Origin: an uncultured Solirubrobacteraceae bacterium | Lineage (GTDB): Bacteria > Actinomycetota > Thermoleophilia > Solirubrobacterales > Solirubrobacteraceae | Direction of reading: 5' to 3' | DNA length: 64,000 nucleotides | NCBI GenBank assembly: GCA_963740605.1 | Contig: CAVUFC010000028.1 | Coordinates: 40,330 to 104,329 of the forward strand | Part shown: in pieces, positions 3,454 through 58,243 of the stretch | Layout: each line of letters opens with the position of its first letter | How positions within the stretch are numbered: the first letter of the stretch is position 1 | Position numbers and translations under genes: made by a program | Notes under the pieces: model-generated | What the model was told of the DNA's origin: nothing | What the model saw: only the letters and a program-made list of their open reading frames with translations | Database searches by the model: none

Positions 3454-3474
3454 GCGGGTTACGGTAGCGATCGG

Positions 3475-5077: not shown

Positions 5078-5100
5078 TACGCGAACGCTACCGTTCGGAG

Positions 5101-8525: not shown

Positions 8526-8566
8526 GAGAATCCGGAACCCTACCGCCGTCGCGTCACAATCTTCGG

Positions 8567-13144: not shown

Positions 13145-14284
13145 ATGCGAGTCATGTTCTGTACCCGTGCGGGCGCCGGCCACTTCGGGCCGCTCGTCCC
13201 GTTCGCGAAAGCCTTCCTGAGAAACAACGACGAGGTCGTGTTCGTGGCCCCCGCCGAGTCGGCCGCGATGATCGCGGGCGCCGGCTTCGACCACGAGCTG
13301 ATCCCGAACCCGCCCACCCAAGGGCGCGCCGAGCTGTTAACCCGCGCGCGCCGGATGAGCTGGGACGAGGCCAACGTGGTGGTCGTCCGCGACCTGTTCG
13401 TCGCCACGGACACCCCCGCCAACTTCCCCCACGTCGTCGACGCGATCGAGACCCACCGCCCCGACGTCGTGCTCTGGGAGGCGTCGGATTTCGCCGCCGC
13501 CCTCGCCGCCGAGGCGACGGGAGTTCCGGCGGTGTGTATCGGCATCACGCAGGCCCGCCACCGCGAGGTGCTGGCCGACGTCGTGAGCGAGGCGCTCGAG
13601 GCGGTCCGCCCCGGGCTCGGCCTCCCGCCCGACCCCACGCTCGGGCGGATGGACTCGATCCCCTACTTCACACTCATGCCAGAGGAGTTCGAGGACCCGG
13701 AGACGCCCGGGCTGCCGCACGCGCTCCGGTTCCGCGAGCGGACCACCAAGGCGCGCCCGCTGCCGGACTGGTGGGAGCACGCCGAGTGGCCGCTCGTCTA
13801 CCTGACGCTCGGCTCGGTCGCCCCGACGATGGACTTCTTCCCCGGCGTCTACCGCGAGTCGCTCGACTCCCTCAGCCACCTGCCCGTCCGCGTGCTGGTG
13901 ACAGTGGGCCGCGACCGCGACCCCGCCGATCTCGGTCCGGTCGGGCCGAACGTGCACGTCGCCCGCTGGGTGCCGCAGGCCGACGTGATGCCCCACACCG
14001 CCGCGATGATCTGCCACGGCGGGTCGGGCACGGTGCGCGCCGGTCTCGCCGCGGGCGTCCCGCTGGCGGTGCTCCCGCTGTTCGCCGACCAGCCCTTCAA
14101 CGCGCAGCGCGTCAGCGAGCTCGGGGCGGGCATCACGCTCGACGACGCCGCAGGCGCCGGCGACGCCGTGCGCCGGCTCCTCGGCGACCCCTCCTACGGG
14201 AAGGCGGCGCAGAGAGTCGCGGCGGCAACCCGCAGGCTGCCGACGGTGGACCGAGCGGTAGAGATCGTGCGCGGGCTGGCCTAG
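13145..14284 (+). CDS. GT1-family glycosyltransferase (MGT/UDP-glycosyltransferase-like)
   Basis: N-terminal RAGAGHFGPLVPFA. C-terminal HGGSGTVRAGLAAGVPLAVLPLFADQPFNA. Confidence 0.8.
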   Translation: MRVMFCTRAGAGHFGPLVPFAKAFLRNNDEVVFVAPAESAAMIAGAGFDHELIPNPPTQGRAELLTRARRMSWDEANVVVVRDLFVATDTPANFPHVVDAIETHRPDVVLWEASDFAAALAAEATGVPAVCIGITQARHREVLADVVSEALEAVRPGLGLPPDPTLGRMDSIPYFTLMPEEFEDPETPGLPHALRFRERTTKARPLPDWWEHAEWPLVYLTLGSVAPTMDFFPGVYRESLDSLSHLPVRVLVTVGRDRDPADLGPVGPNVHVARWVPQADVMPHTAAMICHGGSGTVRAGLAAGVPLAVLPLFADQPFNAQRVSELGAGITLDDAAGAGDAVRRLLGDPSYGKAAQRVAAATRRLPTVDRAVEIVRGLA

Positions 14285-15447
14285 AGCCAGCCGCGCTCGG
14301 TGGCGTGCAGGACGGCCTGGGCGCGGTCGACCGCGCCGAGCTTGCCGTAGATGTTGTGCAGGTGCGTACGCACCGTGCTCGTCGAGAGCGAGAGCTCGAG
14401 CGCGATCTGCTTGTAGACCATGCCCTGCGCCAGCCGCTTGAGGACCTCGAGCTCACGCGAGGACAGCGGGCACGGCTCGACCGAGCGCGGGCGGTCCTTG
14501 CTCGGGTACGGCAGGTCGTAGAGGACGGCCCGGAGCTCGCTCGGGCCGAAGCCGACCGCGCGGGCGGCCTTCAGCAGCTCGGTCGAGGAGACCGGCGAGC
14601 CCTGCGAGTAGTGCGCCAGCATGTCGGCGAGGCGGACGAACGCGCTGTCACCCTGGGCATCCTCGGCGTGGTGGCGCTCGATCGCGGTCGCGACGGCCTT
14701 CGGCAGGTTCCACCGGCGGGCGAGGACGCCGCCCACCAGCGCGTGGTCGACACCGAGCTCGCGGCGCTCGTAGTGCAGGCGCTCCTCCGGCGTGCGCGCG
14801 GGGCCGTGGACCTGGCGCGGGTAGCCCGGGTACGCGTGCATGAGCACGAGCTTGCCGACATCGTGGAGAAGGGCGGTGACGAGCAGGCGGTCGCGATGCG
14901 GGTAGCCGGACGCGGCGGCGAGCCGATCGGCCGCGCGCTGAACGGCGACGGCGTGCAGACGGAAGCGCTCCGGTGCCGCGTCCCACGTCTTGCCGCGCTC
15001 GAAGAACTCGAACGTCTCGGTGTTCGTCGCCAGCCGCTGGACGGCCTCCGGAGAGAGCACCTCGACCGCGCTGACAATCGACTCGACCTGGCCGCGCTTG
15101 GGCGAGTCGAGCCCGTTCGCGAGGCGCAGCACGGCGATCACGAGCGCGACGTCGGACTCGATGGCCCGCACGACCTCGCCGGTCGACGGATGCTCCTCGG
15201 CCATCAGCGCGACCAGGCGGTTGCGCGACTCGGCGAGTGCGGGGAAGAGTTCGAGCGCCTCGAAGGCGGCGGTCAGGCGCTTGCCGTGACCCTCGTTGCG
15301 CGGACGGCCGACGACCGCGTACGGCTCGCGGCCAGGGGCCTTCGCCACGCGGGTCGCGTCGGGGGTGCTGGCAGGGGGTGCAGCAGGCGGCATGAGAGTG
15401 TCGTCAGGCGTCACGGGAATCTGTTCAGGCGGTTCTTGGCCTGGCAT
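14281..15447 (-). CDS. HDOD domain / LuxR-type HTH fusion regulator (start may be GTG 15522)
   Basis: HDOD-like LHDVGKLVL...HAxVGGVLARRWNLP...IERHH. C-terminal LSSRELEVLKRLAQGMVYKQIALELSLSTSTVRTHLHNIYGKLG. Confidence 0.75.
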   Translation of the reverse strand: MPGQEPPEQIPVTPDDTLMPPAAPPASTPDATRVAKAPGREPYAVVGRPRNEGHGKRLTAAFEALELFPALAESRNRLVALMAEEHPSTGEVVRAIESDVALVIAVLRLANGLDSPKRGQVESIVSAVEVLSPEAVQRLATNTETFEFFERGKTWDAAPERFRLHAVAVQRAADRLAAASGYPHRDRLLVTALLHDVGKLVLMHAYPGYPRQVHGPARTPEERLHYERRELGVDHALVGGVLARRWNLPKAVATAIERHHAEDAQGDSAFVRLADMLAHYSQGSPVSSTELLKAARAVGFGPSELRAVLYDLPYPSKDRPRSVEPCPLSSRELEVLKRLAQGMVYKQIALELSLSTSTVRTHLHNIYGKLGAVDRAQAVLHATERGWL

Positions 15448-15518
15448 GGCCCCGCCTTCAAGCCCTATCGGCAAGTCTGGACGGATCGTTGAGCCGCCAG
15501 CCCCGCCTTCGCGCCGCT

Positions 15519-16859
15519 TCACGTCCCCTTCCTCCCGTTAAGCGCATGGTCCACCCGAGCCAGGGTTTCGTCGCGCCCGAGCAGCGCAACTGTCTCGAAG
15601 ATACCCGGTGAGACGGTCGTTCCAGTCACCGCAACCCGCAACGGCTGGAAAACCTGCTTGCGCTTGACACCCAGCCGCTCGGCCACGTCGCCCAGCGCGG
15701 ACTCGAGGTTCTCCTCGGTCCACGGTGCCGGAACGTCGGCCAAAGCGGTCCGTACGGCGCTCAGCGCGTCCTTCGCACCCGGCGCTTCGAGGATCTTCTC
15801 GCGGGCCGCCGGATCGTCCGCGGGGCCGTCGAAGAAGAACTGCGTGAGCGGCCAGAACTCCGCCAGGGTCGAGATCTTGTCCTGTGAGATTTCGACCGCA
15901 CCGCGGAGTCCGCTCCGACCGGTGAGCGACTCCAGTCGCGCCGTCAGTTCGTCGACATCGAGCTCACGGAGGTAGCGCCCATTCATCCAGCGCAGCTTCT
16001 GCTCGTCGAACACGGCCGGCGATTTCGAGACCCGCTCGAGCCGGAAGCGCTGCTGGAGTTCGGAGATCGTGTGGAACGTCGTCTCCTCGTCATACCCCCA
16101 GCCGAGCAGCGCCAGGTAGTTGATGACCGCCTCCGCCAGGTACCCCGCGTCGCGCAGATCCTGCACCGATGTGGCGCCGTGGCGCTTGCTCAGCTTCTTC
16201 CCGTCAGGCCCGTGCAGCAGGGGCAGGTGGCCGTAGATCGGGGTCGGCGCCCCCATCGCCTGCTGTATCAGCATCTGCTTGGGCGTGTTGGAGTAGTGGT
16301 CGGCACCGCGCACGACGTGGGTGATGCCGGCGTCGGCGTCGTCGACCACCACGGCCAGGTGGTAGATCGCCGATCCGTCGGCGCGGGCGATCACGAGATC
16401 GTCCAACAGGGAGTTCTCGAAGGCGCTCTCGCCGCGGATTACGTCGTTGACGACCGTGACGCCGTCATCGGGCACGCGCAGGCGCACGGCGCCGCTGCCC
16501 TCGTCCTCGCCACGGAAGCCGCGGTTGCCGTGCTGCTCCTTGAACGCCTTGACGTCGTCGGGGCCGGCATTCGAGCGGTAGGCGTGCCCGTCGGCCAGCA
16601 ACTGCTCGACGACCTCGCGGTGGCGGTCGGCGTTCTGCGCCTGGTAGGTCGGCCCCTCGTCCCAGTCGATGCCGAGCCACTCGAGCGCGTCGAAGATCGT
16701 CTGGACGTTCTCGGGCGTCGACCGCTCACGATCGGTGTCCTCGATGCGCAGCACCAGCTGGCCGCCTTGCCCGCGGGCAAGCAGCCAGTTGTAGAGCGCC
16801 GTCCTCGCGTTCCCGATGTGCAGCGCCCCTGTCGGCGAAGGGGGGAACCGTACCCGCAT
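15519..16859 (-). CDS. gltX: glutamate--tRNA ligase
   Basis: RFPPSPTGALHIGNARTALYNW (HIGH), KLSKRHG (KMSKS). ATG at 16859. Confidence 0.92.
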   Translation of the reverse strand: MRVRFPPSPTGALHIGNARTALYNWLLARGQGGQLVLRIEDTDRERSTPENVQTIFDALEWLGIDWDEGPTYQAQNADRHREVVEQLLADGHAYRSNAGPDDVKAFKEQHGNRGFRGEDEGSGAVRLRVPDDGVTVVNDVIRGESAFENSLLDDLVIARADGSAIYHLAVVVDDADAGITHVVRGADHYSNTPKQMLIQQAMGAPTPIYGHLPLLHGPDGKKLSKRHGATSVQDLRDAGYLAEAVINYLALLGWGYDEETTFHTISELQQRFRLERVSKSPAVFDEQKLRWMNGRYLRELDVDELTARLESLTGRSGLRGAVEISQDKISTLAEFWPLTQFFFDGPADDPAAREKILEAPGAKDALSAVRTALADVPAPWTEENLESALGDVAERLGVKRKQVFQPLRVAVTGTTVSPGIFETVALLGRDETLARVDHALNGRKGT

Positions 16860-37891: not shown

Positions 37892-38251
37892 TCAGGCCGC
37901 TGACGCCTCGCGGGCGCTTTCGGCGAATCGGCGGAACGTCTCGGGGTCGCGCACGGCGATGTCGGCCAGCACCTTGCGGTCGATCTCGATGCCGGCGAGC
38001 TTCATACCGTGCATGAACGTGGAGTAGCTCATCCCGTTCTGGCGCGCTGCCGCGTTGATGCGGGTGATCCACAGCCGGCGGAAATCGCGCTTGCGATTGC
38101 GGCGGTCGCGGTAGGCGTAGGCATCGGCCTTCATGACCGCTTCCTTGGCCCGCTTGTACGACGAGTTCGCCTCGCCGCGGAAGCCCTTGGCCCGCTCGAG
38201 GACGGCGCGGCGCTTCTTGCGCGCGTGGACGGAGCGCTTGACGCGGGTCAT
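37892..38251 (-). CDS. rplT: 50S ribosomal protein L20
   Basis: [26 protein letters not shown]... Confidence 0.95.
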
Positions 38252-38451
38252 CGCCCGTTCCCTCCGAGCAGCTTGGTGACCACCTTGCGATCGGCCTTGG
38301 AGATGTCGCGGTCCAGCCCGAACGAGCGCTTGCGCTTCGGCGACTTCTTCTCGAGGAAGTGGCTCGAGAAGGCGTGGCGGGCCTTGAGCTTGCCCGTCCC
38401 GGTCTTCTTGAAGCGCTTCTTCGCGCCCGAGTGCGACTTCATCTTCGGCAT
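38248..38451 (-). CDS. rpmI: 50S ribosomal protein L35
   Basis: [27 protein letters not shown]... ATGA overlap with rplT. Confidence 0.93.
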
Positions 38452-38462
38452 ATCGGGCGCCG

Positions 38463-38468
38463 AGTATA
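38463..38468 (-). promoter_or_regulatory. candidate -10 hexamer TATACT 11 nt upstream of the rpmI ATG (near-leaderless transcript)
   Basis: Minus strand ...GGCTCTCTATACTCGGCGCCCGAT-ATG. No Shine-Dalgarno sequence in between. Confidence 0.25.
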
Positions 38469-38595
38469 GAGAGCCGGTGTCCACGGCCCGCCTGAACCGT
38501 GCCGTGACTTTCGATCACCGACAGCAGAGTTCTGCCTACCGCTCGCCTAAATGGCAGGTGTGGCCTAGACTCCTCGAGGGGACCCCGCGATCAAG

Positions 38596-38850
38596 GTGCC
38601 CCCGCTGGCGATCGGCTCGCGGCTGGTGCGCAAGAAACTCGGATTTCGCACACTGCTCGACGTGATCCCGCTCGACGCATCGCTGGTGAAGGGCTCGCAC
38701 GGCCGCATCCCCGACGATCCGGCCAAGGGCCCGCTGCTGATGACGCGCCATCCCGACCTGCTGGGCGACGGCGAGGTCGCCGCCACCGACGTGCACGACG
38801 TGATCCTCCGCCACCACGGCGTGCCGGTGCGGGAGGTGGCCGCCCGGTGA
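38596..38850 (+). pseudogene. C-terminal remnant of an alkaline-phosphatase-superfamily (nucleotide pyrophosphatase/phosphodiesterase-like) gene
   Basis: 84-aa ORF. FRTLLDVIPLDASLVKGSHGRIPDDP resembles the extreme C-terminus of ~450-aa AP-family proteins. No upstream coding sequence for the catalytic domain. Confidence 0.4.
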
Positions 38851-39845
38851 CGACGCTCGGCCGCAAGGCCGACCACCTGCGGATCGCCGCGCGGCCCGAT
38901 GTCGAGCACACGGGCAGCACCGGCTTCGCGGCGCTGCGTCTGCGGCACCGCGCGCTGCCCGAGCGCGACCTCGACGAGGTGTCGCTGGAGACGACGCTGC
39001 TCGGCAAGGAGCTGGCCGCCCCGCTGGTCGTGTCGGCGATGACCGGCGGCACCGACGAGGCGGCGGAGATCAACGCCCGGCTGGCACGCGCGGCCTGCGA
39101 GCAAGGGCTCGCGCTGGTGCTCGGATCCGGTCGCGCGCTGCTCGACGACCCGGAGCTGCTCCCGACCTATCGCAGCGGCGACCGCCCTCCACTGCTGCTC
39201 GGCAACCTCGGCGCGGCGCAGGTGCGCCTGGCGGACGCGCCGACGCGGGCGGAGCGGCTGATCGAGCTGCTCGACGCCGACGGGCTGACGATCCACCTGA
39301 ACCCGATCCAGGAAGCCGTGCAGCCCGAGGGCGAGCCGCGCTTTGTGGGCGTCGCGGCCGGGATCGCCGCCGTCGCCGCGCACCTGGCACCGCTGCCGGT
39401 GCTGGTCAAGGAGGTCGGCTTCGGGATGGACGCGGCCGACGTGATGCTGCTGCGCGACGCCGGCGTCGCGGCGATCGACGTCGCCGGTGCCGGCGGCACC
39501 AACTGGGCGCTCGTCGAGGGTCACCGTGACGAGCGCGCCGGCGACGTCGCGGCGGCGTTCTCCGACTGGGGCGTACCCACCGCCACCGCGCTGGCCGAAG
39601 CCCACGCCGCCGCGCCCGACCTGCCGCTGATCGCCTCCGGCGGCCTGCGTGACGGTGTCGACGCCGCCAAGGCGCTCGCGCTGGGAGCGCGCGCCGCCGG
39701 GCTCGCGCGCCCGTTCCTGCTCGCCGCGCGGGCCGACCGCACGTCCGAGACCGCGGCGACTCTGGTCCGCCAGCTGCGCATCGCAGTCTGGGCCGTGGGC
39801 GCGGGCAGCCCCCCCGAGCTGTCACCGGCGCATCTGCGCATGTAG
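38847..39845 (+). CDS. fni: type 2 (FMN-dependent) isopentenyl-diphosphate delta-isomerase
   Basis: KADHLRIA..., PLVVSAMTGG, IHLNPIQEAVQPEG, VKEVGFGM, ASGGLRDGVD. Confidence 0.85.
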   Translation: MTTLGRKADHLRIAARPDVEHTGSTGFAALRLRHRALPERDLDEVSLETTLLGKELAAPLVVSAMTGGTDEAAEINARLARAACEQGLALVLGSGRALLDDPELLPTYRSGDRPPLLLGNLGAAQVRLADAPTRAERLIELLDADGLTIHLNPIQEAVQPEGEPRFVGVAAGIAAVAAHLAPLPVLVKEVGFGMDAADVMLLRDAGVAAIDVAGAGGTNWALVEGHRDERAGDVAAAFSDWGVPTATALAEAHAAAPDLPLIASGGLRDGVDAAKALALGARAAGLARPFLLAARADRTSETAATLVRQLRIAVWAVGAGSPPELSPAHLRM

Positions 39846-39856
39846 CGTCCGCGCGC

Positions 39857-40759
39857 ATGGGAGAGCGAGCGCTGCAGACACTGCTGGACGGCGGGTCCTT
39901 CTTCGAGAGCCCGCGCTGGCACGAGGGACGCTGGTGGGTGTCGGACTTCTACAACGAGCGCGTGCTCGCCGTGGACACGGACGGGCGCGCCGAAGACGTC
40001 ATGATCATCCCCGAGCGGCCGTCGGGCCTTGGCTGGATGCCGGACGGGTCGATGCTCGTGGTCTCGATGCGCGACCACAAGATCCTGCGGCGGTCGCCGG
40101 ACGGCGCGGTGAGCGAGCACGCCGACGTCAGCGAGCACTGCGGCGGGGTGCTCAACGACATGGTCGTCGACTCGCGCGGCCGCGCGTACGTGGGCAACTT
40201 CGGCTTCGACCTGATGAACGGCGGTGACCCGGTCCCGGCGAACCTCGTCCGCGTCGACCCGGACGGGAGCGCCACGGTCGTGGCCGAGGAGATGCTGTTC
40301 CCGAACGGCTCGGTGGTCACGCCGGACGGCCGGACGCTGATCGTCGGCGAGACCGCCGGCGCTCGCTACACGGCGTTCACGATCGCCGACGACGGGTCGC
40401 TGACCGAGCGGCGGATCTGGGCCCAGGTCGCCGAGACGCCGCCGATCACGACGCTCCAGGAGACGCTCGGAAAGCTCAAGTTCGGCCCGGACGGCTGCGG
40501 GCTCGACGCCGAGGAGCACATCTGGTCGGCCGACGAGGTCGGCGCCCGCTGCGTGCGCCTCGCGCCCGGCGGCGAGATCGTCGAGGAGATCCGCATGCCC
40601 GAAGGGCTCGACGTGTTCGCTTGCATGCTCGGCGGCGACGACGGCCGCACGCTGCTGATGTGCGCCGCGCCGGACTTCCTCGAGCACAACCGCATCGGCG
40701 CCACCGACGCCGTCCTGCTCACGACGACGGTCGACGTCCCGCACGCCGGGTTGCCGTAA
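39857..40759 (+). CDS. SMP-30/gluconolactonase/LRE-family beta-propeller protein
   Basis: ESPRWHEGRWWVSDF, NDMVVDSRGRAYVGNFGFD, FPNGSVVTPDGRTLIVGET. Confidence 0.8.
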   Translation: MGERALQTLLDGGSFFESPRWHEGRWWVSDFYNERVLAVDTDGRAEDVMIIPERPSGLGWMPDGSMLVVSMRDHKILRRSPDGAVSEHADVSEHCGGVLNDMVVDSRGRAYVGNFGFDLMNGGDPVPANLVRVDPDGSATVVAEEMLFPNGSVVTPDGRTLIVGETAGARYTAFTIADDGSLTERRIWAQVAETPPITTLQETLGKLKFGPDGCGLDAEEHIWSADEVGARCVRLAPGGEIVEEIRMPEGLDVFACMLGGDDGRTLLMCAAPDFLEHNRIGATDAVLLTTTVDVPHAGLP

Positions 40760-40804
40760 CCGGATTGAAGGCGGCGTGCAGGCGGCGTGGCCGAGTCTGC
40801 GGCC

Positions 40805-41233
40805 ATGACCTCCTTCACTCCCCGCATCATCACCATCGCCCTCGCGATCCTTGCCTTCGCGGCCCCCGTGGCCGGCGCGGCCCCGATCCGCGACGGCAGC
40901 CCGCCCATCACGCGTCCCAATCAGCGCGCGCACGTCTACGTCATCCCGGCGTCGGCGTTCAAGCAGCAGCCGGCGACCACGGCGGCGGCGCACCAGGCGA
41001 AGCCGTCCGTCTCCGGCACCGGCGACCGCTCGGCGCACGTCTACGTGATCCCGGCGTCGGCGTTCAAGCAGCAGCCGGCGACCACGGTGGCGACGCACCA
41101 CGCGAAGCCGTCCGTCTCCGGCGACAGCGACCCCTCGCCGCTCGTCTACATCTTGCCGAGCCTCGCGCTCATCGCGATGTTCGGTGCCGCGGCCGTGTAC
41201 GTCCGCGGCTCGCGCCAGCCCGCGCAGATCTGA
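40805..41233 (+). CDS. small secreted/anchored repeat protein, paralogue A
   Basis: Signal peptide MTSFTPRIITIALAILAFAAPVAGA, 2 x 35-aa repeat, C-terminal PSPLVYILPSLALIAMFGAAAVYVRGSR. Confidence 0.6.
   Translation: MTSFTPRIITIALAILAFAAPVAGAAPIRDGSPPITRPNQRAHVYVIPASAFKQQPATTAAAHQAKPSVSGTGDRSAHVYVIPASAFKQQPATTVATHHAKPSVSGDSDPSPLVYILPSLALIAMFGAAAVYVRGSRQPAQI
40928..41137. repeat. 2 x 105-bp tandem coding repeat
   Basis: AHVYVIPASAFKQQPATT(A/V)A(A/T)H(Q/H)AKPSVSG... encoded twice, at 40928-41032 and 41033-41137. Confidence 0.85.
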
Positions 41234-41294
41234 CGCTCCGGCGAATCCCGGCGCGGTCTCCGCCGCGCCGGGGTCGCCCGGGGGTACGCTCCGC

Positions 41295-44132
41295 GTGAGC
41301 GTGCTCGACATCGGGATCCTGGGACCGTTGGAGGTCCGGCACGAGGGTCGTGCCCTGGATCTCGGCGGGCCACGGGGGCGGACGCTGCTCGGCGTGCTGG
41401 TCGTGCGCGGCAGGATGAGCGCCGACGAGCTGATCGAGGCGCTGTGGGGCGACGATGCGCCGCCGACCGCACCAAAGGCGCTGCAGGTGACCGTGTCGCG
41501 GCTGCGCCGGGCGCTCGGGCCCGCGGCGGACCGGCTCGAGACGACGGGCGACGGCTACCGCCTCGGCATCGAGCCCGGAGAGCTCGACGCCGACCGGTTC
41601 GAGCAGGCCTGCCGACAGGGCATCGAGCTGCCGCCACGCGAGGCCGCGGTCGTGTTACGGGAGGCGCTCGCGCTGTGGCGCGGGCCCGCGCTCGCCGACC
41701 AGCGCTACGAGGCGTGGGCGCAGCCGGAGATCCGCCGGCTCGAAGAACTGCGAGGGCTCGCCATCGAGGAGCGCGTGAAGGCCGACCTCGCGCTCGGCGA
41801 GTCCGCACGTCTTGTCGGTGAGCTGGAGGCGCTGGTGGCCGAGCATCCGCACCGCGAGCGCCTGCGCGCGCAGCAGATGCTCGCGCTGTACCGCTCCGGC
41901 CGCCATGCCGACGCGCTCGCCGCCTACCGTGACGCCCGCGCCGCGTTCGGCGAGCTGGGCCTCGAGCCCGGCCCGGACCTGCGCGCGCTCGAGCAGGCGA
42001 TCCTCACGCATGACCCGTCGCTGGCGGCGCCGGCGGTCACCGCGCCTGGGATCCCGCCGGCCCCTCCCACGCCCACGTTCGGCCGCGACGATGACCTGCG
42101 CGACGTCCTCGCAGGGCTCGACGGCACACGGCTGCTCACGCTCACCGGGCCCGGTGGCGTCGGCAAGACCCGGCTCGCGATCGAGGTCGCGCGCGCGGCC
42201 GACGGCCGCTTCGTCTCGCTGGCCTCGACCTCCGATGCCGAACGGATCCCGTCGCTGATCTGCGACGCTCTCGCGGTCGCCCGCGTCCCGGGCGAGACCG
42301 ACCGTGAGGCGCTCGACCGCGCGCTCGGCCGCGGATCGCTGCTGCTCGTACTCGACAACCTCGAGCACCTCGCGGACGCCCCGCCGCTGCTGGCCGAGCT
42401 GCTCGACACCCACCCGAATCTCCGACTCCTCGCGACGAGCCGCCAGCCGATCGGCATCCGCGCCGAGCGGCTGTCCCCCGTGCCGCCGCTCGTACCCGGC
42501 GCGGACGCCGCGTTGTTTGCGGACCGCGCCCGCGCGCACGACCCCGCCTTCGCCATCGACGACGACAACGCCGCCGCGGTCACGACGATCTGCGAGCGGC
42601 TCGCGGGGATGCCACTGGCGATCGAGCTCGCCGCCGCACGGCTCGGCGTGCTCTCACCCGCCGACCTCGCCGACCGGCTGTCCGCGGCCCTGGGCGTCCT
42701 CGACCGCGGCCCGCACGACGCGCCGCCGCGGCAACGGACGCTGCGCGCGACGCTCGACTGGAGCTACGACCTGCTCGACGACGAAGAGCAGCGGGCGTTC
42801 ATCGCGCTCGGGGTCTTCGCCGGCGGTTGCGAGCTCGATGCGGCCGAGGCGGTGACGGGCGCCGGTCTCGACGTCCTCGAGAGCCTCGTCGCGAAGAGCC
42901 TCGTGACGGCCCGCGCGGGCCGGCTGGGAATGCTCGAGCCCGTCCGCCAGTACGCCGCCGAACGGCTGGCCGCGAGCCCGGATCTCGACGCGATCCACGC
43001 CCGCCATCTCGGCCACTACCTGGCGCTCGCGAGGCGCGCCGAGCCCGACATCTTCACGCGCGGCCGGTCCTCCCCACTCCTCCCGGTCCTTCATCGCGAG
43101 CGAGACAACCTCGACGTCGCGTTCGAACGCGCGATCATCGCGCGGCCGATCGACGCCCTCGCGCTGGCGGGCGAGCTCTCGCCGTACGGCTGGAACGCGC
43201 ACGCCGCCGAGCAGGTCGGTCGCCGGTGCGAGCGCGCCCTGAACGCCGCCGGCGAGGACGCCCCGGCGGAGCTCCGCGCCCGCGCACTGCTCGCCGCCGG
43301 CAACAACAACGCGGCATACATGACCGATCCGGAGTTCGTCTCCGCCGCGCTCGCCCTCTTCCGCGAGCTCGGCGACGAGCGCTGGATCGTGCGGAGCCTG
43401 CTGGCACTGAGCAACGCCCGCAGCGTCCGCGGCGACTACGACGAGGGACGGCGCGCCGCCGAGGAGGCGTTCGCGATCGCGCGTCGGCTCGAAGACCCCG
43501 GGCTGATCGCCGAGGCGGTCGGTCAGGTCGCGCTCTCGATCGACGGGGTCGAAGAGGCGTTGCCGCTCATCGTCGAGGCCGCAGACCGGTGCCGCAGCGT
43601 CGGAGCTGTGGCACGAGCCGCGGGGCTGCTGTCGACCGCCGGGATGGCCGCGCTGCGCGAGGACGCGTACGAGCGATCCGAGCAGTTGCAGCGCGACGCG
43701 CTCGAATTCGCGCTCGAGACCGGCGATCCCAACGTCATCGCGCTCGTGCAGGGAAACCTCGGGCTCGCGGCCTTGCTCGGCGGGCGCCTCGAAGCGGCGC
43801 GTCCGGCATTCCGGGACGAGCTCGTGATGGCGCACGAACACGCGCTCGCGATGTTCTACATGGAAGGGCTGCTCGGGCTCGCCGCGCTCGCCGCGGCGGA
43901 CGGGAACGACCATTTCGCCGCAGTTCTGCACGGCGCCGCCTGGGAGCTGAACGACCGCCCGATCTACCCCTCAGAGGCACCCGTGTACGAGCGCGTCGAG
44001 CAGCGTTTCATCGCCCCCGCTCGCGGGCGGCTCGGCGAGCCGGCGTGGGCGGCAGCGCAGGCCGAGGGCCGCGCGATGACGGTCGCGGATGCGGTGGGTT
44101 ACGCGCTGCGACCGGCGCTGTTACCGCACTGA
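41295..44132 (+). CDS. SARP/AfsR-type regulator (OmpR-like wHTH + BTAD + NB-ARC ATPase + TPR)
   Basis: ILGPLEVRHEGRALDLGGPRGRTLLGVLV, LWRGPALAD, Walker A GPGGVGKTRLA, LLVLDNLEH, long helical C-terminus. Confidence 0.85.
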   Translation: MSVLDIGILGPLEVRHEGRALDLGGPRGRTLLGVLVVRGRMSADELIEALWGDDAPPTAPKALQVTVSRLRRALGPAADRLETTGDGYRLGIEPGELDADRFEQACRQGIELPPREAAVVLREALALWRGPALADQRYEAWAQPEIRRLEELRGLAIEERVKADLALGESARLVGELEALVAEHPHRERLRAQQMLALYRSGRHADALAAYRDARAAFGELGLEPGPDLRALEQAILTHDPSLAAPAVTAPGIPPAPPTPTFGRDDDLRDVLAGLDGTRLLTLTGPGGVGKTRLAIEVARAADGRFVSLASTSDAERIPSLICDALAVARVPGETDREALDRALGRGSLLLVLDNLEHLADAPPLLAELLDTHPNLRLLATSRQPIGIRAERLSPVPPLVPGADAALFADRARAHDPAFAIDDDNAAAVTTICERLAGMPLAIELAAARLGVLSPADLADRLSAALGVLDRGPHDAPPRQRTLRATLDWSYDLLDDEEQRAFIALGVFAGGCELDAAEAVTGAGLDVLESLVAKSLVTARAGRLGMLEPVRQYAAERLAASPDLDAIHARHLGHYLALARRAEPDIFTRGRSSPLLPVLHRERDNLDVAFERAIIARPIDALALAGELSPYGWNAHAAEQVGRRCERALNAAGEDAPAELRARALLAAGNNNAAYMTDPEFVSAALALFRELGDERWIVRSLLALSNARSVRGDYDEGRRAAEEAFAIARRLEDPGLIAEAVGQVALSIDGVEEALPLIVEAADRCRSVGAVARAAGLLSTAGMAALREDAYERSEQLQRDALEFALETGDPNVIALVQGNLGLAALLGGRLEAARPAFRDELVMAHEHALAMFYMEGLLGLAALAAADGNDHFAAVLHGAAWELNDRPIYPSEAPVYERVEQRFIAPARGRLGEPAWAAAQAEGRAMTVADAVGYALRPALLPH

Positions 44133-44169
44133 AAGCGTGCGGTTACCGCCGTCTCGGAGGCTGCCGTCC

Positions 44170-44655
44170 ATGACCTCCACCACCCGCATCATCACCACCG
44201 CCCTCGCGATGCTCGCGATCGCCGTCCCCGCGGCGAGCGCGATGCCCATGTACGAGCACGGCGACACCACCGCCACCGGCCGGAGCAGCGCCGACATCCG
44301 CACGTCCAGCCTCGCCGGCACCACGTCGGCGCCGGTGCAGGACCTGCGCAACGCCGACGAGCGTGCCCCGCAGCCGGCCGAGCCGACGCAGGACCTCCGC
44401 AACCCGGACAACCGCGCCCCCGGCGTCGAGGCCGCCCCGGCCCCGACCGACACGAGCCGCGTCCCGGTCCAGCAGTCGCCTTACTCGCCGGCGCAGCTCA
44501 AGCCGATCTCGACCCCGCAGGCGGCCCCCGTCGCCGATGACGGACCGTCCCCGTTCGTCTACATCATCCCGAGCGTCGTGCTGATCGCACTGCTCGGCGC
44601 GGGATTCGCGTTCATCAAGACCACCTCGCGGCCCGTCCGCCGGTCGGCTGCCTGA
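44170..44655 (+). CDS. small secreted/anchored repeat protein, paralogue B
   Basis: MTSTTRIITTALAMLAIAVPAASA, QDLRN(A/P)D(E/N)RAP x2, C-terminal PSPFVYIIPSVVLIALLGAGFAFIKTTSRPVRR. Confidence 0.6.
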   Translation: MTSTTRIITTALAMLAIAVPAASAMPMYEHGDTTATGRSSADIRTSSLAGTTSAPVQDLRNADERAPQPAEPTQDLRNPDNRAPGVEAAPAPTDTSRVPVQQSPYSPAQLKPISTPQAAPVADDGPSPFVYIIPSVVLIALLGAGFAFIKTTSRPVRRSAA

Positions 44656-44682
44656 CAGACAGCGATCGCTAGCGTCAGCAGG

Positions 44683-45453
44683 GTGAAGGTCGAGCTGGGA
44701 GGCGTGCCGGAAACCCTGCTGTGGACGCTGTACCACCGTTCGATCGAAGCGCGGCGGCCCGATGCGATCCTCACGGATCCTCGGGCCGTCGCGCTCGTCG
44801 ACGAGATCGACTATGCGTTCGCGGCGCGCTTCGGCGGCGGCGAGGGCGCGCTCTCGCAGGGGCAGGCACTGCGCGTCCGGCGGTTCGACGGCGAGGTGCG
44901 GCGCTTCCTCTCCCAGCATCCCGACGGCGCCGTCGTCGCGCTCGGCGAAGGGCTCGAGACCCAGTTCTGGCGGGTCGACAACGGCCGCGTGTCCTGGATC
45001 ACCGTCGATGTGCCGGAGGCGATCGAGGTCCGCGAGCGGCTGCTCGAACCAGGCGAACGCCAGACCCTGATCGCCGGCTCCGCACTCGACGAGGACTGGA
45101 TGGACGAGGTCGACGCCTCACGCGGCCTGCTCATCACCGCCCAGGGCCTGCTCATGTACTTCAACTTCGACGACGTCGAGCGACTCGTCGCCGACTGCCG
45201 GCAGCGGTTCCCGGGCGCCACGCTCGTGTTCGACGCGATGCCGGGCTGGCTCAGCAAGGCGAGCCAGCGGGGCAAGCTCGGCGACCCGGATCACTACCAG
45301 CCGCCGGCCTGGCACTGGGGCATGGACTACGACAAGCGGCGCCGGCTCGGCGCCGAACGGTTGCGGCTCCCACGCGGACGGGGGGTCTTCTTCGGCTACG
45401 TCGCCCCGCTGCTCCGGCTCGGCCTCGTCCAGATCTTCCGCGTGCGCCTGTAG
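44683..45453 (+). CDS. class I SAM-dependent methyltransferase, LCM/TcmP-like O-methyltransferase family
   Basis: ETLLWTLYHRSIEARRPDAILTDPRAVALV, VVALGEGLETQFWR, ITAQGLLMYF. Confidence 0.75.
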   Translation: MKVELGGVPETLLWTLYHRSIEARRPDAILTDPRAVALVDEIDYAFAARFGGGEGALSQGQALRVRRFDGEVRRFLSQHPDGAVVALGEGLETQFWRVDNGRVSWITVDVPEAIEVRERLLEPGERQTLIAGSALDEDWMDEVDASRGLLITAQGLLMYFNFDDVERLVADCRQRFPGATLVFDAMPGWLSKASQRGKLGDPDHYQPPAWHWGMDYDKRRRLGAERLRLPRGRGVFFGYVAPLLRLGLVQIFRVRL

Positions 45454-45506
45454 CGGACGTCCACGCCGCCCCGCAGCGCGATGGCTGCGGAGCGGGGGAC
45501 TTGGCT

Positions 45507-46088
45507 TTAAGAGGCCGCTGCGGCCGGCTTGTCGCCGGTACCGGTCTTCTGCGGCGCCAGCATCATCGTCATGTTGCGGCCGTCCTGCTGTGGCCGCTGC
45601 TCGATCACCGCGAGGTCGCCGAGGTCCTCCGCGAGCCGGTTGAGAATCATCTCACCGCGCTCGGGGTGGGCCATCTCGCGGCCGCGGAACATGATCGTCA
45701 CCTTGACCTTGTCGCGCCCCTTGAGGAAGCGCTCGACATGGCCCTTCTTGGTGTCGTAGTCGTGCTGGGCGATCTTCGGCCGGAACTTGATCTCGCGGAC
45801 GTTGATCTGCTGCTGATGCTTGCGCGCGGCCTTCTGCTTCTGGTTCTGCTCGTACTTGTACTTCGAGTAGTCCAGGATGCGGCACACGGGCGGCTTGGCA
45901 TCGGGAGCCACCTCGACGAGGTCGAGGTCGCGGTCCTGCGCCTGGCGCAGGGCCTCTTGGGTGCGCATGATCCCCACCTGCTGTCCGTTCTCGTCGATGA
46001 GCCGGACCTCGGGAACGCGGATGCGCTCATTGATCCGGGTGGGGTCGCGCTCAGGCGGCTGCCGGTCGAAACGTCTTGGGACCGGCAC
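45507..46088 (-). CDS. infC: translation initiation factor IF-3 (start codon uncertain)
   Basis: [22 protein letters not shown]..., [16 protein letters not shown]. Confidence 0.9.
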
Positions 46089-55017: not shown

Positions 55018-56174
55018 CTACGGCGTCTGGGTCAGCGCGATCTCGGCGTTGCCGGTGAGCGCGCCTTCACCGTCCGCGCCGGTGCCCGGATCCGTGTAGG
55101 AGGCCGCGAACACCGCGCGGATCTCCGACGGATCGTGGCCCGACGGGTAGGTCGTCACGAACTGCCCCGTGCAGCCGCTCGTGCTGCTGATCGGGTGCCC
55201 GTGCGTCTGGTGGCCCACGATGTAGTTCAGGCTCACCTTGGTGCGGTCGACGGGCTGGTCGTCCGTCACCTTCACCTCGACCTGGACCGTGTCACCGAAG
55301 TGGAACGCCTGGCCCTCGACGGGCTTGACGAACTCGATGACGGACGAGCGTTGCCGACGATGACCTGCGCCTCGGCCGCAGCGGAGCGGCCGGTGCGGTC
55401 GGTCACCTTCAGCGTCGAGTTGTAGACGCCGGCTTTATCGAACGTGTGCGTCGGGTTCGGCTCGGTCGAGTCGAACGTCCCGTTGGCGTCGAAGTCGCAC
55501 TGGTAGGTGAGACGGTCGCCGCCCGGATCGCTCGTGCCCGCGCTCGAGAAGTGGACCTCGAGCGGAGCGGTCGGGCTGTCGGGCGGGTCGGCCGCCGCCT
55601 TGACGATCGGCGTCCGGTTCCCGCGCACGTAATCGACGCGAGCGAGCTGGGCCTCCGGCAGCGTGACGAAGTAACCGGTGCCGTACTCGAGCGTGTACAG
55701 CGCGCCGTCCTCGCCGAACTCGATGTCCATCGGGTTGTCGAACGTGAACGACGGCAGGACCGGGTTGATCTTCAGGAGGCTGCCCGACTCGTCGAGCCGC
55801 ATCTCCTTGATGTAGTCCCGCGTCCACTCGTAGAACAGCGGCACGTTGTCGTAGTACTGCGGCCACTTGATCCGCGACGTGGACTTCGGCTTGTAGTTGT
55901 ACGCCGGGCCCGCCATCGGGCCGACGCCGCCGGTGCCGAGCTCCGGGAACCCGGTCGACTCGTTGTACGAGTACCAGACGTCCGGATGCCGCCCCGGCGG
56001 CAGGTCACGCAGGCCGGTGTTGTTCGGCGAGTCGTTGACCGTCGCCGCGCAATCGAACTTCGGGCCCGACGTCTTGGTGGCGAAGTCGTAGTGGAGCCTC
56101 CCTCCCAGATGTGGATGTCTCCTCCGCTCCCGGACCCCAGTGCCGCTCCCGACGGCACTTTGCCCGCTTTTCAC
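55018..56174 (-). pseudogene. N-terminally truncated, frameshifted remnant of a large PQQ-type sugar dehydrogenase / PKD-domain protein
   Basis: FDCAATVNDSPNNTGL...PMDIEFGEDGALYTLEYG, a PKD-like LTYQCDFDANGTFD...YNSTLKVTDRTG, then a frame break near 55348 (IVGNARP | VIEFVKPVEGQAFHFGD...VGHQTHGHP). Confidence 0.6.
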
Positions 56175-56254
56175 ATGGGCCCGACGACCTTCTGACGGAT
56201 CTAGCAGAACTCAGCGCTGCATCGCCCGCGGCCGAACCGCGAGACTTGCGCCGG

Positions 56255-58243
56255 ATGCGCCGGCTCGCTGCCCTGCTGTTCGTCGTCCTCGCGGGGCTCG
56301 CGAGCCCTGCGCCCGCGCGCGCGGCGTTCACCGATGCGGACTACTGGGCGTTCGCCGATCGCCAGATGGGCGGGCTCGACGAGCGCTGGAGCGCGCGGCG
56401 GCACGAATACGTCGGCGAATCCGGCGAAGCGGAGATCCGCGAGAACGCGGCGATGCTGATGACGCACTCGATCGCCGCCTACACCGGGCACGCCGGCCCG
56501 ACGCGGCAGGACGAGCGCGCGCACTTCCTGATCGAGAAGCTGACGTCGCCGCCGGCGTTCCTCGGCACCGCGCCGGCACCGGCGCCCACGCAGTCGACGT
56601 GCTGGTCCGTCGACCTCGAGACCTCCGCACGCGAGCACATGTCGCTCGAGCCGAAGGTGGCCGAGGCGCTCACGTGGGCGTGGAAGGCCCGGACCGCGCT
56701 GCGGCTGAGCGCCGGCGAGGTGCAGCGGATAGCGGACACGGTGACCGCGTGTGCCTACAGCGCCGCATGGCGGTACCCGCGCCGGCTCGCCAACCAGATC
56801 AACTGGAACGCCGAGATGTACGCGAGCGCGGCGACGGTGTCCGGACTGCCGGAGCTGCTGGTCAATGACTACGGACGCCAGCTCGGCGACTTCGCCGCGG
56901 GCATCACGCGACCGATGGCGGGCGAGAAGAGCCCCAACCTCGGCGCCGGCTACCAGTTCCACTACCGGCCCGACCATCGCGACCGCGCCAGCAGCAACCT
57001 CGACACGCCCGAGTACGCGAACATCGTCATCCAAGCGCTGTCGTACTACGTCCGGGCGCTGGCGCTCGGGATGCCGCCGCTCCCGGCCGACGAGGTGCGG
57101 CAGCTGCGGTCCTGGATGCTGCGGCTGCTCGCCGGCTCGTGGACGCACGCCGGCTACCTGAACTGGGACACCGCCCGTGGGCTGAAGCGCTGGCACTCCG
57201 GGCAGTACTGGGCGTTCGCGCAGCAGGGGCTGCAGACGATCGCGACCACGCCGCGGTTCTGGCGCGACCCGAACGAGGGCCGCTGGGCGAAGGCGATGTT
57301 CGACCAGGGGCTGGTCCTGTACCGGCGCCTTGCGGACGAGAACCACAGCGTGTTCGCGCCGCAGCTGATGTTCGGCGTCGACTCGCGCATGAAGCGCGAC
57401 GCGTTGTTCCGCGTCCGGATCCTCGCGAGCGCCGTGCGCGCGATCGGGCTCGGCATGGGCTCGCTGCCGTCGGCGACGCCACCGCCGCTGTGGGCGTACG
57501 ACTACGACACCGGCCGGCTCGCGATCACCACGCCGCGGTACTCGACCGCGATCGTCCCCGACGACCGCGGCCCACTCGGCTATGGCGGCCTCGAGCCGGC
57601 GCGGCTGTTCGGGCCGGGGCAGCGGGTCGCGTCGGGCACGGGCGGGCGGCCGCCGGAGGCGTTCGGGATCGTCGTCTACGACCGGCTTGGTCGCGCGGTG
57701 CTGTCGTCGCAGCGCCCGCGCACGGGGCTCGGGCTGCGGATCGTGCGCTCCCCGGCCGGGAACATCACGCACCCGCGCGCGTATCCGCGGCAGCCGTACG
57801 CCGGGCCGTTCTCGGTCGTCGAGGCCGTCGGGAGCGTGCGGCGGGCACGCGTGCGCGTCGAGTCGCGGCACACGTTCCGGCGCGCGACGATCGCCAACCG
57901 CTGGACGGTCGGCTGCCGGCGCCTGTGCCCGGCCGACCGCGTGCGGGCCTTCTTCCCCACCTGGAGCGAGACGATCGTGGCCGTCCTGCGCAACGGCCAT
58001 CGCGTCCGGCTCGGGATCGACGCGCCGCGCGCGCGCGTGCCGCTAGCCGCGGTCGACCACGTCCGGCTCGGGGGGTACCGGATCGCGCGGCTGAGCGGTC
58101 CACCGGGCGCGATGCTGTTCGCGGTTCCAGCGTCGTCCGAACGGACGAACCCGAAGCCGCAGCCGAGCTTGGCCGTCCAGCTGACAGAGCGCCGGCCGTT
58201 CCACGCCGTGCGGCTGGCCGCGGTGATCAAGCCGCTCGGCTGA
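56255..58243 (+). CDS. 662-aa secreted protein of unrecognised family
   Basis: Signal peptide MRRLAALLFVVLAGLASPAPARA. The first ~400 aa look mainly helical, then a beta-rich C-terminus. Coding-like composition. Confidence 0.65.
   Translation: MRRLAALLFVVLAGLASPAPARAAFTDADYWAFADRQMGGLDERWSARRHEYVGESGEAEIRENAAMLMTHSIAAYTGHAGPTRQDERAHFLIEKLTSPPAFLGTAPAPAPTQSTCWSVDLETSAREHMSLEPKVAEALTWAWKARTALRLSAGEVQRIADTVTACAYSAAWRYPRRLANQINWNAEMYASAATVSGLPELLVNDYGRQLGDFAAGITRPMAGEKSPNLGAGYQFHYRPDHRDRASSNLDTPEYANIVIQALSYYVRALALGMPPLPADEVRQLRSWMLRLLAGSWTHAGYLNWDTARGLKRWHSGQYWAFAQQGLQTIATTPRFWRDPNEGRWAKAMFDQGLVLYRRLADENHSVFAPQLMFGVDSRMKRDALFRVRILASAVRAIGLGMGSLPSATPPPLWAYDYDTGRLAITTPRYSTAIVPDDRGPLGYGGLEPARLFGPGQRVASGTGGRPPEAFGIVVYDRLGRAVLSSQRPRTGLGLRIVRSPAGNITHPRAYPRQPYAGPFSVVEAVGSVRRARVRVESRHTFRRATIANRWTVGCRRLCPADRVRAFFPTWSETIVAVLRNGHRVRLGIDAPRARVPLAAVDHVRLGGYRIARLSGPPGAMLFAVPASSERTNPKPQPSLAVQLTERRPFHAVRLAAVIKPLG

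Follow-up and report, generated by a model that had tools for sequence, protein, structure and literature searches.

Two small genes for predicted exported proteins that flank the gene of a large transcriptional regulator raise the question of whether the three form one module, i.e., whether the regulator controls two substrates of a C-terminal protein-sorting system, as was proposed in an earlier note. The window, which is the whole stretch of 64,000 nucleotides (64 kb) analysed here, encodes protein A (40805-41233, forward strand), an A-type paralog whose ORF and translation yield the 142 aa reported before, and protein B (44170-44655, forward strand), for which they yield 161 aa and not the 162 aa claimed. 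Codon-position GC is of the coding type for both genes, with a GC3 of 0.95 for A and 0.93 for B. Their proposed paralogy was borne out, as BLASTP of A against B resulted in E=5e-11, the string ATGACCTCC...CGCATCATCACCA.CGCCCTCGCGAT is common to the 5'-ends of both genes at the DNA level and both proteins share the C-terminus composed of PSP(L/F)VYI(L/I)PS, a helix and basic residues. Among the ORFs of the 64-kb window, the pattern P.P[LF]VYI[IL]P is present at the C-terminus of A and B only.

A and B belong to one narrow small-protein family that is restricted to the Solirubrobacteraceae. For B, the canonical member, 162 matches with full-length homology were found. An HMM built from the C-terminus only (39 positions) and searched against 1.84 billion (1.84e9) representative proteins resulted in 47 matches. 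Two of these, P0135 and P0167, are repetitive hydrophobic artefacts, while the genuine ones are proteins of 30-215 aa with the motif at the extreme C-terminus, and all of them share the signal peptide MTSTTPRIIT..ALA.LA.AAP.A.A and the disordered QDLRNPD-type middle, showing that this is a single family rather than varied cargo sharing a tag. Moreover, a search with the ectodomain alone retrieved the same family and nothing else, and among 185,579 species genomes the peptide pattern was matched by 9 stretches, two of which encode confirmed relatives, both in Solirubrobacteraceae MAGs. A matches the family HMM with E=6e-33 and forms its own cluster (P0121) next to the A-type relatives P0122-P0127. 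Neither A nor B gave a match in Pfam or NCBIfam, and together they define an unannotated family of small, presumably envelope-located proteins.

Members of this family would consist of a Sec-type signal peptide, cleaved at A-x-A, a disordered Pro-rich ectodomain of 60-110 aa with QDLR(N/S)(P/A)D motifs, a highly conserved C-terminal membrane helix starting directly after DDGPSP and a short basic tail, which would be cytoplasmic. Signal peptides are predicted for aa 1-25 of A, with cleavage between AGA and AP, and for aa 1-24 of B, with cleavage between ASA and MP; cleavage, topology and any function in the envelope are putative features of the small protein. The ectodomain of B is disordered, rich in Pro, Thr and Asp and carries QDLRNxDxRAP twice (aa 57-67 and 74-84). 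AlphaFold2 predicts helices for B at residues 3-21 and 129-152 only and disorder for the rest; the second helix, predicted with pLDDT >90, is followed by the basic KTTSRPVRRSAA, and the conserved, putatively cytoplasmic tail ends in ...SRPxRRSxA-COOH. The C-terminal modules are DDGPSPFVYIIPSVVLIALLGAGFAFI plus KTTSRPVRRSAA in B (44536-44652, forward strand) and DSDPSPLVYILPSLALIAMFGAAAVYV plus RGSRQPAQI in A (41123-41230, forward strand, regex and HMM matches), scoring 71.8 bits and 71.4 bits against the C-terminus-only HMM. A hydrophobic stretch does follow the ...PS, as was noted before, but it comprises approximately 14 residues instead of approximately 17.

The gene between A and B encodes a large SARP regulator of about 945 aa (about 41295-44132, forward strand), and its earlier description as a SARP/NB-ARC/TPR regulator of the STAND type holds for all three parts. 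Its domain order, i.e., OmpR-type wHTH, BTAD, P-loop STAND NTPase and TPR, is AfsR-like. Pfam identifies BTAD with 134.7 bits (E=4e-39) and Trans_reg_C with 26.3 bits (cut-off 26.2), the matches to AAA_22, AAA_16 and NB-ARC at approximately aa 299-420 and to TPR_12 at aa 814-878 (24.6 bits, cut-off 30.1) are below the Pfam cut-offs, and the Walker A motif GPGGVGKT is present in the sequence. The NCBIfam AfsR model (NF053617) aligned end to end with aa 37-910; as the score of 197.7 bits compares to an equivalog cut-off of 1430, the assignment as AfsR ortholog was rejected and the likeness is one of architecture only. The ORF opens at 41184, but the L003 ortholog MLEFRILGPLEV points to a GTG start at about 41295/41301, so that the regulator and A would not overlap.

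Immediately upstream of B-type genes a conserved DNA element is present, which is new here and which in the window occupies 44120-44162 of the forward strand. It has the form GTTACCG-N15-GTTACCG, 8 bp, GAGGCT, 7 nt, ATG and is composed of box 1 (GTTACCG, 44120-44126), a degenerate middle heptamer (GAAAGCG, 44131-44137), box 2 (GTTACCG, 44142-44148), which is 22 bp from box 1, and the candidate -10 hexamer GAGGCT (44157-44162), ending 7 nt before the ATG of B at 44170. Box 1 encodes the regulator codons L-L-P and the middle heptamer overlaps the regulator stop codon TGA (44130-44132). Box 1 forces the use of a TTA leucine codon, of which there are three among 1,434 leucine codons in 32 window genes. 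In a search tolerating two mismatches, for which 0.12 chance matches were expected in the window, the exact GTTACCG-N15-GTTACCG was found once, at -50 of B. The same exact element is present at -50 of family genes in nine of ten related loci and nowhere else in those loci. A pattern-only scan of metagenomes returned 34 loci, 11 of which have the element directly upstream of family genes; two further matches are placed 41 and 63 nt upstream of start codons of SARP homologs (L033, L020), which exceeds chance expectation. In 13-15 independent loci the repeats keep this phasing (22 bp, with the degenerate middle heptamer). The distance from box 2 to a conserved GA(G/C)NCT hexamer, the putative -10, is exactly 8 bp, and sequence conservation sets in sharply at box 1, also in loci that differ further upstream. 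RNAalifold revealed no conserved RNA structure in the element (-1.35 kcal/mol, covariation 0.01).

According to the rule given for SARP-dependent promoters, repeats recur at a distance of 11 or 22 bp and the 3' repeat is followed after 8 bp by the -10, and the afsS promoter has weak -10 and -35 elements (PMC10936776). Heptamer spacers are 4-15 nt in length and the small gene afsS, a neighbour of the regulator gene, is a direct target of activation by AfsR (PMC10972967), while PimR uses a three-heptamer operator and has a single adjacent target (PMC5930380). The phasing of the element matches these published promoters, as would its 8-bp spacing with GAGGCT as the candidate -10, and the B unit thereby resembles AfsR activating afsS. 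On balance we favor the explanation that the proteins form a narrow small envelope-protein family of which B is switched on by the SARP via the repeats, A being a diverged paralog. The unit would be made up of a large, AfsR-like SARP gene and, after a gap of 38 nt, the small gene, with the 3' end of the regulator gene harbouring an activator-type promoter dedicated to B; by binding to the GTTACCG repeats the SARP would switch on B, in the manner of AfsR at afsS or PimR at pimM. As the weak candidate -10 ends 7 nt before the ATG, the B transcript is probably leaderless. However, conservation of the stretch GCTGCCGnCC before the ATG goes beyond what a leaderless transcript would call for, and the leader in L012 is about 50 nt.

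The likeness to AfsR-AfsS of Streptomyces comprises the regulator architecture, a small, repeat-containing disordered protein encoded immediately downstream and direct repeats that overlap the -35 region and stop 8 bp short of a weak -10, the latter being putative here. In contrast to AfsR-AfsS, the repeat reads GTTACCG and differs from the afs box, the two strong boxes are spaced by 22 bp instead of 11 bp, the promoter would be located in the last codons of the regulator, and B is predicted to be exported and membrane-anchored whereas AfsS is cytoplasmic. With PimR-pimM and the SARP-LAL regulators, the B unit shares a heptamer operator with 11-bp phasing and one dedicated neighbouring target, and L020 and L033 resemble them in the divergent arrangement with the operator adjoining the regulator gene; the heptamer differs (CGGCAAG in PimR, GTTACCG here), as does the target, which is the regulator PimM there and a small membrane protein here. 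Large SARPs of the AfsR type are widespread in actinobacteria, but only for a handful of them, nearly all from Streptomyces, have direct targets and inputs been established. The locus, from an uncultured soil actinobacterium of a deep-branching family without cultured members here, adds a predicted triplet of regulator, operator and target, with a GTTACCG operator that is clean, conserved, testable and placed within the stop-codon region of the regulator itself.

Alternatively, the GTTACCG boxes might serve a different, dimeric regulator as operator or belong to a promoter that is not SARP-dependent, with B as second gene of a regulator-B-methyltransferase operon, which is rather unlikely. Each box is nearly palindromic (CGGTnACCG), which would suit a dimeric repressor. 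About half of the related loci have no regulator gene or a deleted one. Its loss occurred repeatedly, with the small gene and the boxes retained, and the boxes are perfect despite deletion of the adjacent SARP in L007, L010/L006, L025, L013, L041 and L026, implying that there the binder is encoded elsewhere in the genome or is not the SARP. Moreover, the intergenic gaps are 28-46 nt in length and free of terminators, including the 38-nt gap between regulator and B, which also allows simple co-transcription, and GGAGG within the candidate -10 lies 9 nt ahead of the ATG and might rather serve as a ribosome-binding site. The methyltransferase, an LCM-family (PF04072) SAM-dependent enzyme (44683-45453, forward strand, Pfam 4.6e-08), is found downstream of the B-type gene also in L001, L003, L007, L017 and L025. 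Against this reading, the published SARP rule fits at three independent points, namely the 22-bp phasing, the 8 bp to a -10-like hexamer and the heptamer unit, and the two pattern-only matches adjoin starts of SARP homologs. Finally, deletion derivatives always retain exactly the segment from box 1 to the ATG, which implies an autonomous promoter.

Regarding the C-terminus, the note had compared its layout to that of sorting signals. The tripartite layout is present and strongly conserved, as a motif, a hydrophobic helix and a basic cluster form the extreme C-terminus in the sequences and the AlphaFold2 model. One tag on many unrelated cargo proteins, the property that defines such signals, was not found, since the C-terminal HMM search proposed as a check found carriers beyond A and B solely within the one small-protein family and never on other cargo. 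A portable sorting tag is thus not supported, as the module is present, among the 1.84e9 representatives, only on a family homologous from signal peptide to tail. As part of the favored explanation, the C-terminal signature is probably the start of a family-specific anchor helix. Nevertheless, conservation of the membrane helix (70-79 bits over 39 positions) exceeds what plain anchoring needs. It is conceivable, though doubtful, that helix and tail are a recognition element, either for an intramembrane enzyme that processes this one family or for docking of the tail to the regulator TPR. The former, if true, would amount to a novel sorting or regulated-proteolysis system with a single substrate family in Solirubrobacteraceae, the latter to a membrane-to-transcription feedback loop and a first physical input signal for a large SARP.

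A dedicated sorting signal in the strict sense, in which an intramembrane enzyme reads PSP(F/L)VYI(I/L)P, cleaves and attaches or releases the ectodomain, appears improbable. It would fit the signature at the outer edge of the helix, the helix-breaking Pro and Gly inside, the basic tail and the unusually strong conservation of the helix sequence, and VY(V/I)IP is found also outside the membrane segment in A and some relatives, like a motif in its own right. However, whole A and B gave no sorting-domain match against the curated NCBIfam profiles, and the best matches of the C-termini alone, to PGF_CTERM (13.3 bits, cut-off 24.5) and strep_LAETG (13.1 bits, cut-off 30), are sub-threshold and confined to the hydrophobic part. 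The module is absent from other cargo among the 1.84e9 representatives. The suggested check for sortase-like genes was negative, with no sortase, exosortase, rhomboid or CPBP-type protein among the 10 ORFs of the window for which a membrane segment is predicted and no processing-enzyme gene in the Pfam tables of six related loci (+/-10 kb). Some exosortase/archaeosortase systems act on one or few substrates only, and in known single-substrate systems the enzyme gene adjoins the substrate gene. LPXTG/sortase, PEP-CTERM/exosortase, PGF-CTERM/archaeosortase and GlyGly-CTERM/rhombosortase resemble A and B in the signature at the outer helix end and the basic cluster, whereas A and B differ from them in the absence of an HMM match, of cargo diversity and of a nearby enzyme gene and in the position of the motif (FVYIIPS in B), which AlphaFold2 places inside helix 129-152. 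An ending of motif, helix and basic tail alone thus does not mark a sorting signal.

A signalling loop, in which a released ectodomain peptide is sensed by the TPR as in RRNPP systems or the tail binds the TPR and tethers the regulator to the membrane, would fit the gene order, with a TPR regulator upstream of the gene for a small exported product, a promoter that probably gives positive feedback and the conserved tail, but is very unlikely, as many loci have kept the small gene in the absence of the regulator and the related loci examined have no peptide-import genes nearby. RRNPP cassettes share with this locus the gene order, the TPR-bearing cytoplasmic regulator, the exported small product and likely autoregulation but differ in having an HTH instead of a SARP and a product without C-terminal anchor; RRNPP propeptides are not known to have such an anchor and RRNPP regulators use a different DNA-binding domain.

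The proposal of a regulator with two substrates holds for one half of the locus, as regulator and downstream B form the conserved unit, linked by a putative SARP-type promoter, whereas A is a diverged paralog with degenerate boxes. We propose that A is the older paralog left by duplication of the regulator and small-gene unit, after which its boxes would have decayed. Alignment of the upstream regions revealed a degenerate element before A (40756-40804, forward strand), composed of GTAACCG (40756-62), TGA, two copies of GGCGGCGTG replacing box 2, GAGTCT (40793-98), 6 nt and ATG, and the A-type genes of L001 and L026 have the same degenerate form. Upstream, Pfam and synteny identify a type-2 IPP isomerase-like FMN_dh protein (38847-39845) and an SMP-30/gluconolactonase-like protein (39857-40759), both on the forward strand. 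A starts 46 nt past the latter gene and may be co-transcribed with both, with neither a terminator nor a sigma-70 consensus promoter in between; its transcription is probably read-through from these IDI-2/SGL genes. The middle of A is built from duplicated AHVYVIPASAFKQQPATT... units, followed by the C-terminal helix and the basic tail, and corresponds to a 105-bp tandem duplication (40928-41149, forward strand; 2.1 copies, 91% matches, Tandem Repeats Finder score 374). The membrane helix of A begins with a third, partial repeat copy (PLVYILPS), and the internal VYVIPAS copies are also matched by the C-terminal HMM. That the middles of A and B are internally repetitive, as had been stated, applies to this duplication and to the two QDLRNxDxRAP copies of B. 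They are not truly unrelated, as the AHVYVIPASAFKQQPATT unit of A has its counterpart in a VY(V/I)(I/P)P..QQP.T segment of the B-type members P0074, P0136 and P0138.

In the window, whose G+C content is 70–73%, a run of plus-strand genes sits between rplT-rpmI (37892–38484, minus strand) and infC (45507–46088, minus strand). It comprises genes for an FMN_dh protein resembling type-2 IPP isomerases (IDI2; 38847–39845), an SMP-30/gluconolactonase-like protein (SGL; 39857–40759), the small protein A (40805–41233; 142 aa), a large SARP regulator, the small protein B (44170–44655; 161 aa) and an LCM-family methyltransferase (44683–45453). The regulator ORF opens at 41184 and ends at 44132, and comparison with orthologs places its real start at about 41295/41301. 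The infC-rpmI-rplT operon, usually contiguous, is split by this plus-strand island of ~7 kb (37892–46088), a split common to all related Solirubrobacteraceae loci. It had been proposed in the earlier note that A and B are paired small ORFs with a common 5′ DNA string and C-terminal motif, and both were confirmed: the 5′ ends of the two genes share this string, the proteins align with E=5e-11, and the motif P.P(L/F)VYI(I/L)P is found within the window in these two ORFs only. Spurious ORFs were ruled out by the coding-type third-position GC (A 0.95, B 0.93) and by more than 160 homologous clusters. Details needed correction: B has 161 rather than 162 residues, and the motif, which itself belongs to the predicted helix, has only ~14 hydrophobic residues after it. 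Internally, A contains a 105-bp tandem duplication and B carries QDLRNxDxRAP twice.

Alignment of the 75 nt upstream of the family genes revealed a conserved element of the form GTTACCG-N15-GTTACCG-N8-GA(G/C)NCT-N7-ATG. Upstream of B, on the plus strand, it consists of box 1 (GTTACCG, 44120–44126), box 2 (GTTACCG, 44142–44148), the −10-like hexamer GAGGCT (44157–44162) 8 bp after box 2, and the start codon ATG at 44170, 7 nt after the hexamer. A conserved but degenerate middle heptamer, GAAAGCG (44131–44137), follows box 1 by 11 bp and overlaps the regulator stop codon TGA (44130–44132). A single exact copy of the double box exists in the 64-kb window, where 0.12 chance matches are expected at the 2-mismatch tolerance of the search; in nine of ten related loci it is present at the same position, and these loci contain no other exact copy. 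Conservation sets in abruptly at box 1, even where the sequence further upstream is unrelated. Moreover, box 1 lies in the regulator codons CTG-TTA-CCG and forces a TTA codon (44122–44124), one of only three among the 1,434 leucine codons of 32 window genes, which points to a constraint at the DNA level. A second of these TTA codons also falls in the SARP gene (codon 121, 41655–41657), within GTGTTACGG, which differs from the box at one position and has no partner 22 bp away.

SARP sites are heptamers with spacers of 4–15 nt, often three in number, and the neighboring small gene afsS is a direct activation target of AfsR (PMC10972967); for PimR, three heptamers and a single adjacent target were described (PMC5930380). 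With the hexamer taken as the putative −10, the element matches at each point the SARP promoter rule, according to which the repeats are 11 or 22 bp apart and the 3′ repeat lies 8 bp from the −10 (PMC10936776). The regulator shares the wHTH-BTAD-NTPase-TPR architecture of AfsR and likewise adjoins a small gene, although its alignment to the AfsR model over aa 37–910 scores far below the ortholog cut-off. Therefore, the locus is read as an AfsR/afsS-like activator-target unit, in which the SARP would activate B via a putative promoter that overlaps the 3′ end of the regulator gene. Since the hexamer ends 7 nt before the ATG, the B mRNA would be leaderless, as far as can be inferred from the sequence; at locus L012 the leader is about 50 nt long. 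The idea of a regulator module in the earlier note was thus borne out in part and sharpened to a testable SARP-operator-target model.

It is possible, however, that the boxes are not SARP sites or that B is expressed in another way. The boxes are near-palindromes and stay intact where the neighboring SARP is lost, the GGAGG in the hexamer region could serve as ribosome-binding site, and B might be co-transcribed with the regulator; on the other side stands the agreement of the element with the SARP promoter rule. No sigma-70 consensus promoter or terminator was found between the genes. The near-palindromic boxes might form an RNA hairpin or attenuator, as GTTACCGCAC could pair with GTGCGGTTAC in the window, but RNAalifold on 13 loci returned no conserved structure (−1.35 kcal/mol, no covariation). 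An ECF-type promoter, in which box 1 would be the −35 and box 2 the −10 element, was judged unlikely by eye, because the two have one and the same heptamer sequence and AAC/CGT signatures are missing from them.

A scan of metagenome contigs with the pattern only resulted in 34 loci, 11 of which lie directly upstream of family genes. In two more, the double box with a GANNCT hexamer precedes a SARP-homolog gene in divergent orientation, at a distance from its start codon of 41 nt in L033 (2899–2941, minus strand; regulator 2982–6515) and of 63 nt in L020 (680–722, plus strand; SARP 617–3, minus strand). These copies point away from the SARP homologs with no obvious gene to drive; they could be relics or serve autoregulation. 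In L033 the SARP has 1177 aa, about 230 residues more than the regulator of the window. The remaining non-family matches, about 12 independent loci, look like chance hits in unrelated lineages. They include a group of six (L018, L034, L035, L037, L038 and L044) from an unrelated lineage with a GC of about 0.67 and xanthine-dehydrogenase-like genes adjoining, exemplified by GTTACCG-N15-GTTACCG-N8-GATGCT at L038 5527–5569, separated by 6 nt from the GTG of a downstream 127-aa ORF; the double box of this lineage is probably a coincidence. A wider regulon was searched for in about 210 kb of related sequence with up to two mismatches, and the double box was found only at family promoter sites and at the SARP-adjacent sites of L020 and L033. 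Other matches at this tolerance were weak, overlapping promoter sites or on the reverse strand, apart from one stray 2-mismatch copy shortly after the B-type gene of L001.

Relatives are found at the corresponding place on the chromosome, between rplT-rpmI and infC/thrS, and the order small gene-SARP-small gene recurs in L001/L005 and L003/L004. Several loci lack the SARP: L007 has the order SGL-small-LCM, five others (L010, L006, L025, L013 and L041) have IDI2-small, and in L008 the small gene stands in a different context. L026 is closely related to the window; it keeps A and B, while regulator residues 31–862 are deleted internally. In SARP-less loci the final 30–60 nt of the regulator coding sequence (...YAL....LLPH*) often still precede the small gene; therefore, the SARP losses are secondary. 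The ancestral unit is a SARP gene with a small gene directly behind it. L009 (3763–15959) has three to four SARP paralogs in a row, with assembly frameshifts, interleaved with two or more small-protein genes, which indicates tandem amplification of the regulator-small gene unit. Downstream of B-type genes the LCM methyltransferase is a recurrent neighbor (also L003 13543–14652), in L003 with an epoxide-hydrolase-like gene inserted in between. Just upstream of the unit, relatives carry IDI-2 and a complete ebo cluster (L010 2892–8555; L003 3234–8909) with eboD (DHQS-like), eboA, eboB (TatD-like), eboE (AP_endonuc_2), eboC (UbiA) and eboF (phosphodiesterase). The window retains only an eboF remnant of the last ~85 codons (38581–38835, in the plus-strand ORF 38569–38850; 90.6% identity to L010 eboF aa 371–455), and the cluster has therefore been deleted in this genome.

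Protein A belongs to a small subfamily (window, L001, L026 and the protein clusters P0122–P0127). The sequence upstream of A-type genes is homologous to the B element, yet with GTAACCG as box 1 and GGCGGCG in place of box 2. The repeat unit of A, AHVYVIPASAFKQQPATT, has a counterpart in the VY(V/I)(I/P)P..QQP.T segment of certain B-type proteins; in the DNA it also corresponds to the beginning of A's own membrane helix. The best explanation for A is an older duplicate of the unit, of which the small gene persisted and the regulator was lost. Its gene lies 46 nt behind the SGL gene, with which it is probably co-transcribed.

In a collection of 5.8 billion proteins, 162 relatives of B were found, all of 100–215 aa and homologous over their whole length. 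They share a signal peptide (MTSTTPRIIT.ALA.LALAAP.ASA|MP), a middle (TSSLAGTTSAP.QDLRNPD.RAP) that is often repeated and followed by a Pro/Gln-rich linker, and the C-terminus DDGPSP(F/L)V(Y/F)I(I/L)P(S/G/A)..LIA(L/M)LGAG.AF.RTSRP.RR. A scan of a genome collection returned two loci, and, as far as names are available, the family is confined to uncultured Solirubrobacteraceae. The suggestion that this C-terminus is a protein-sorting signal was not supported. An HMM of its last 39 positions, run without word filter against 1.84 billion representative proteins, gave 47 matches at E≤1e-3; except for two repetitive hydrophobic artefacts, all are of 30–215 aa, carry the module at the extreme C-terminus, share the signal peptide and have a middle of the same kind. 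An ectodomain-only search returned the same family. NCBIfam scans gave no match to curated sorting-domain models, the best hits being sub-threshold and covering the hydrophobic stretch only. Furthermore, no sortase, exosortase, rhomboid or CPBP protease was found among the 10 window ORFs with a predicted membrane segment or within ±10 kb in six related loci. With no portable tag found, nor a cognate enzyme in the window and these loci, the defining features of a sorting signal were not observed and a general sorting tag was rejected; the C-terminus appears instead to be a strikingly conserved anchor helix of one narrow family.

AlphaFold2, using a 78-sequence alignment, predicts only two helices with pLDDT above 90 (3–21 and 129–152), the second beginning at F129 immediately after PSP, and a disordered ectodomain; a structure search found no solved relatives. 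The small protein thus has a predicted export signal with an A-x-A site, a disordered Pro-rich ectodomain, a single C-terminal helix and a basic tail; its topology is probably type I, and it may have a role at the cell envelope. The QDLRNPD motifs of the ectodomain are conserved and acidic/basic, and the helix contains invariant Pro and Gly. With 70–79 bits over 39 positions, the helix is so conserved as to suggest that a specific partner or enzyme meets it within the membrane; for this reason a dedicated processing system or an interaction of the tail with the TPR domain is kept in mind, improbable as either is.

Elsewhere in the window, two ORFs (766–1902, minus strand, 378 aa; 56039–58243, plus strand, 734 aa), both of coding-type GC3 and both predicted to have a membrane segment, have no Pfam match, and an HDOD-HD-LuxR regulator is encoded at 14281–15537 (minus strand). 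AfsR is controlled by Ser/Thr kinases, which makes a Ser/Thr protein kinase at 8528–10087 (plus strand), predicted to have a membrane segment and ending in a domain that resembles SnoaL/DUF4440, of interest; it is 31 kb distant from the SARP unit.
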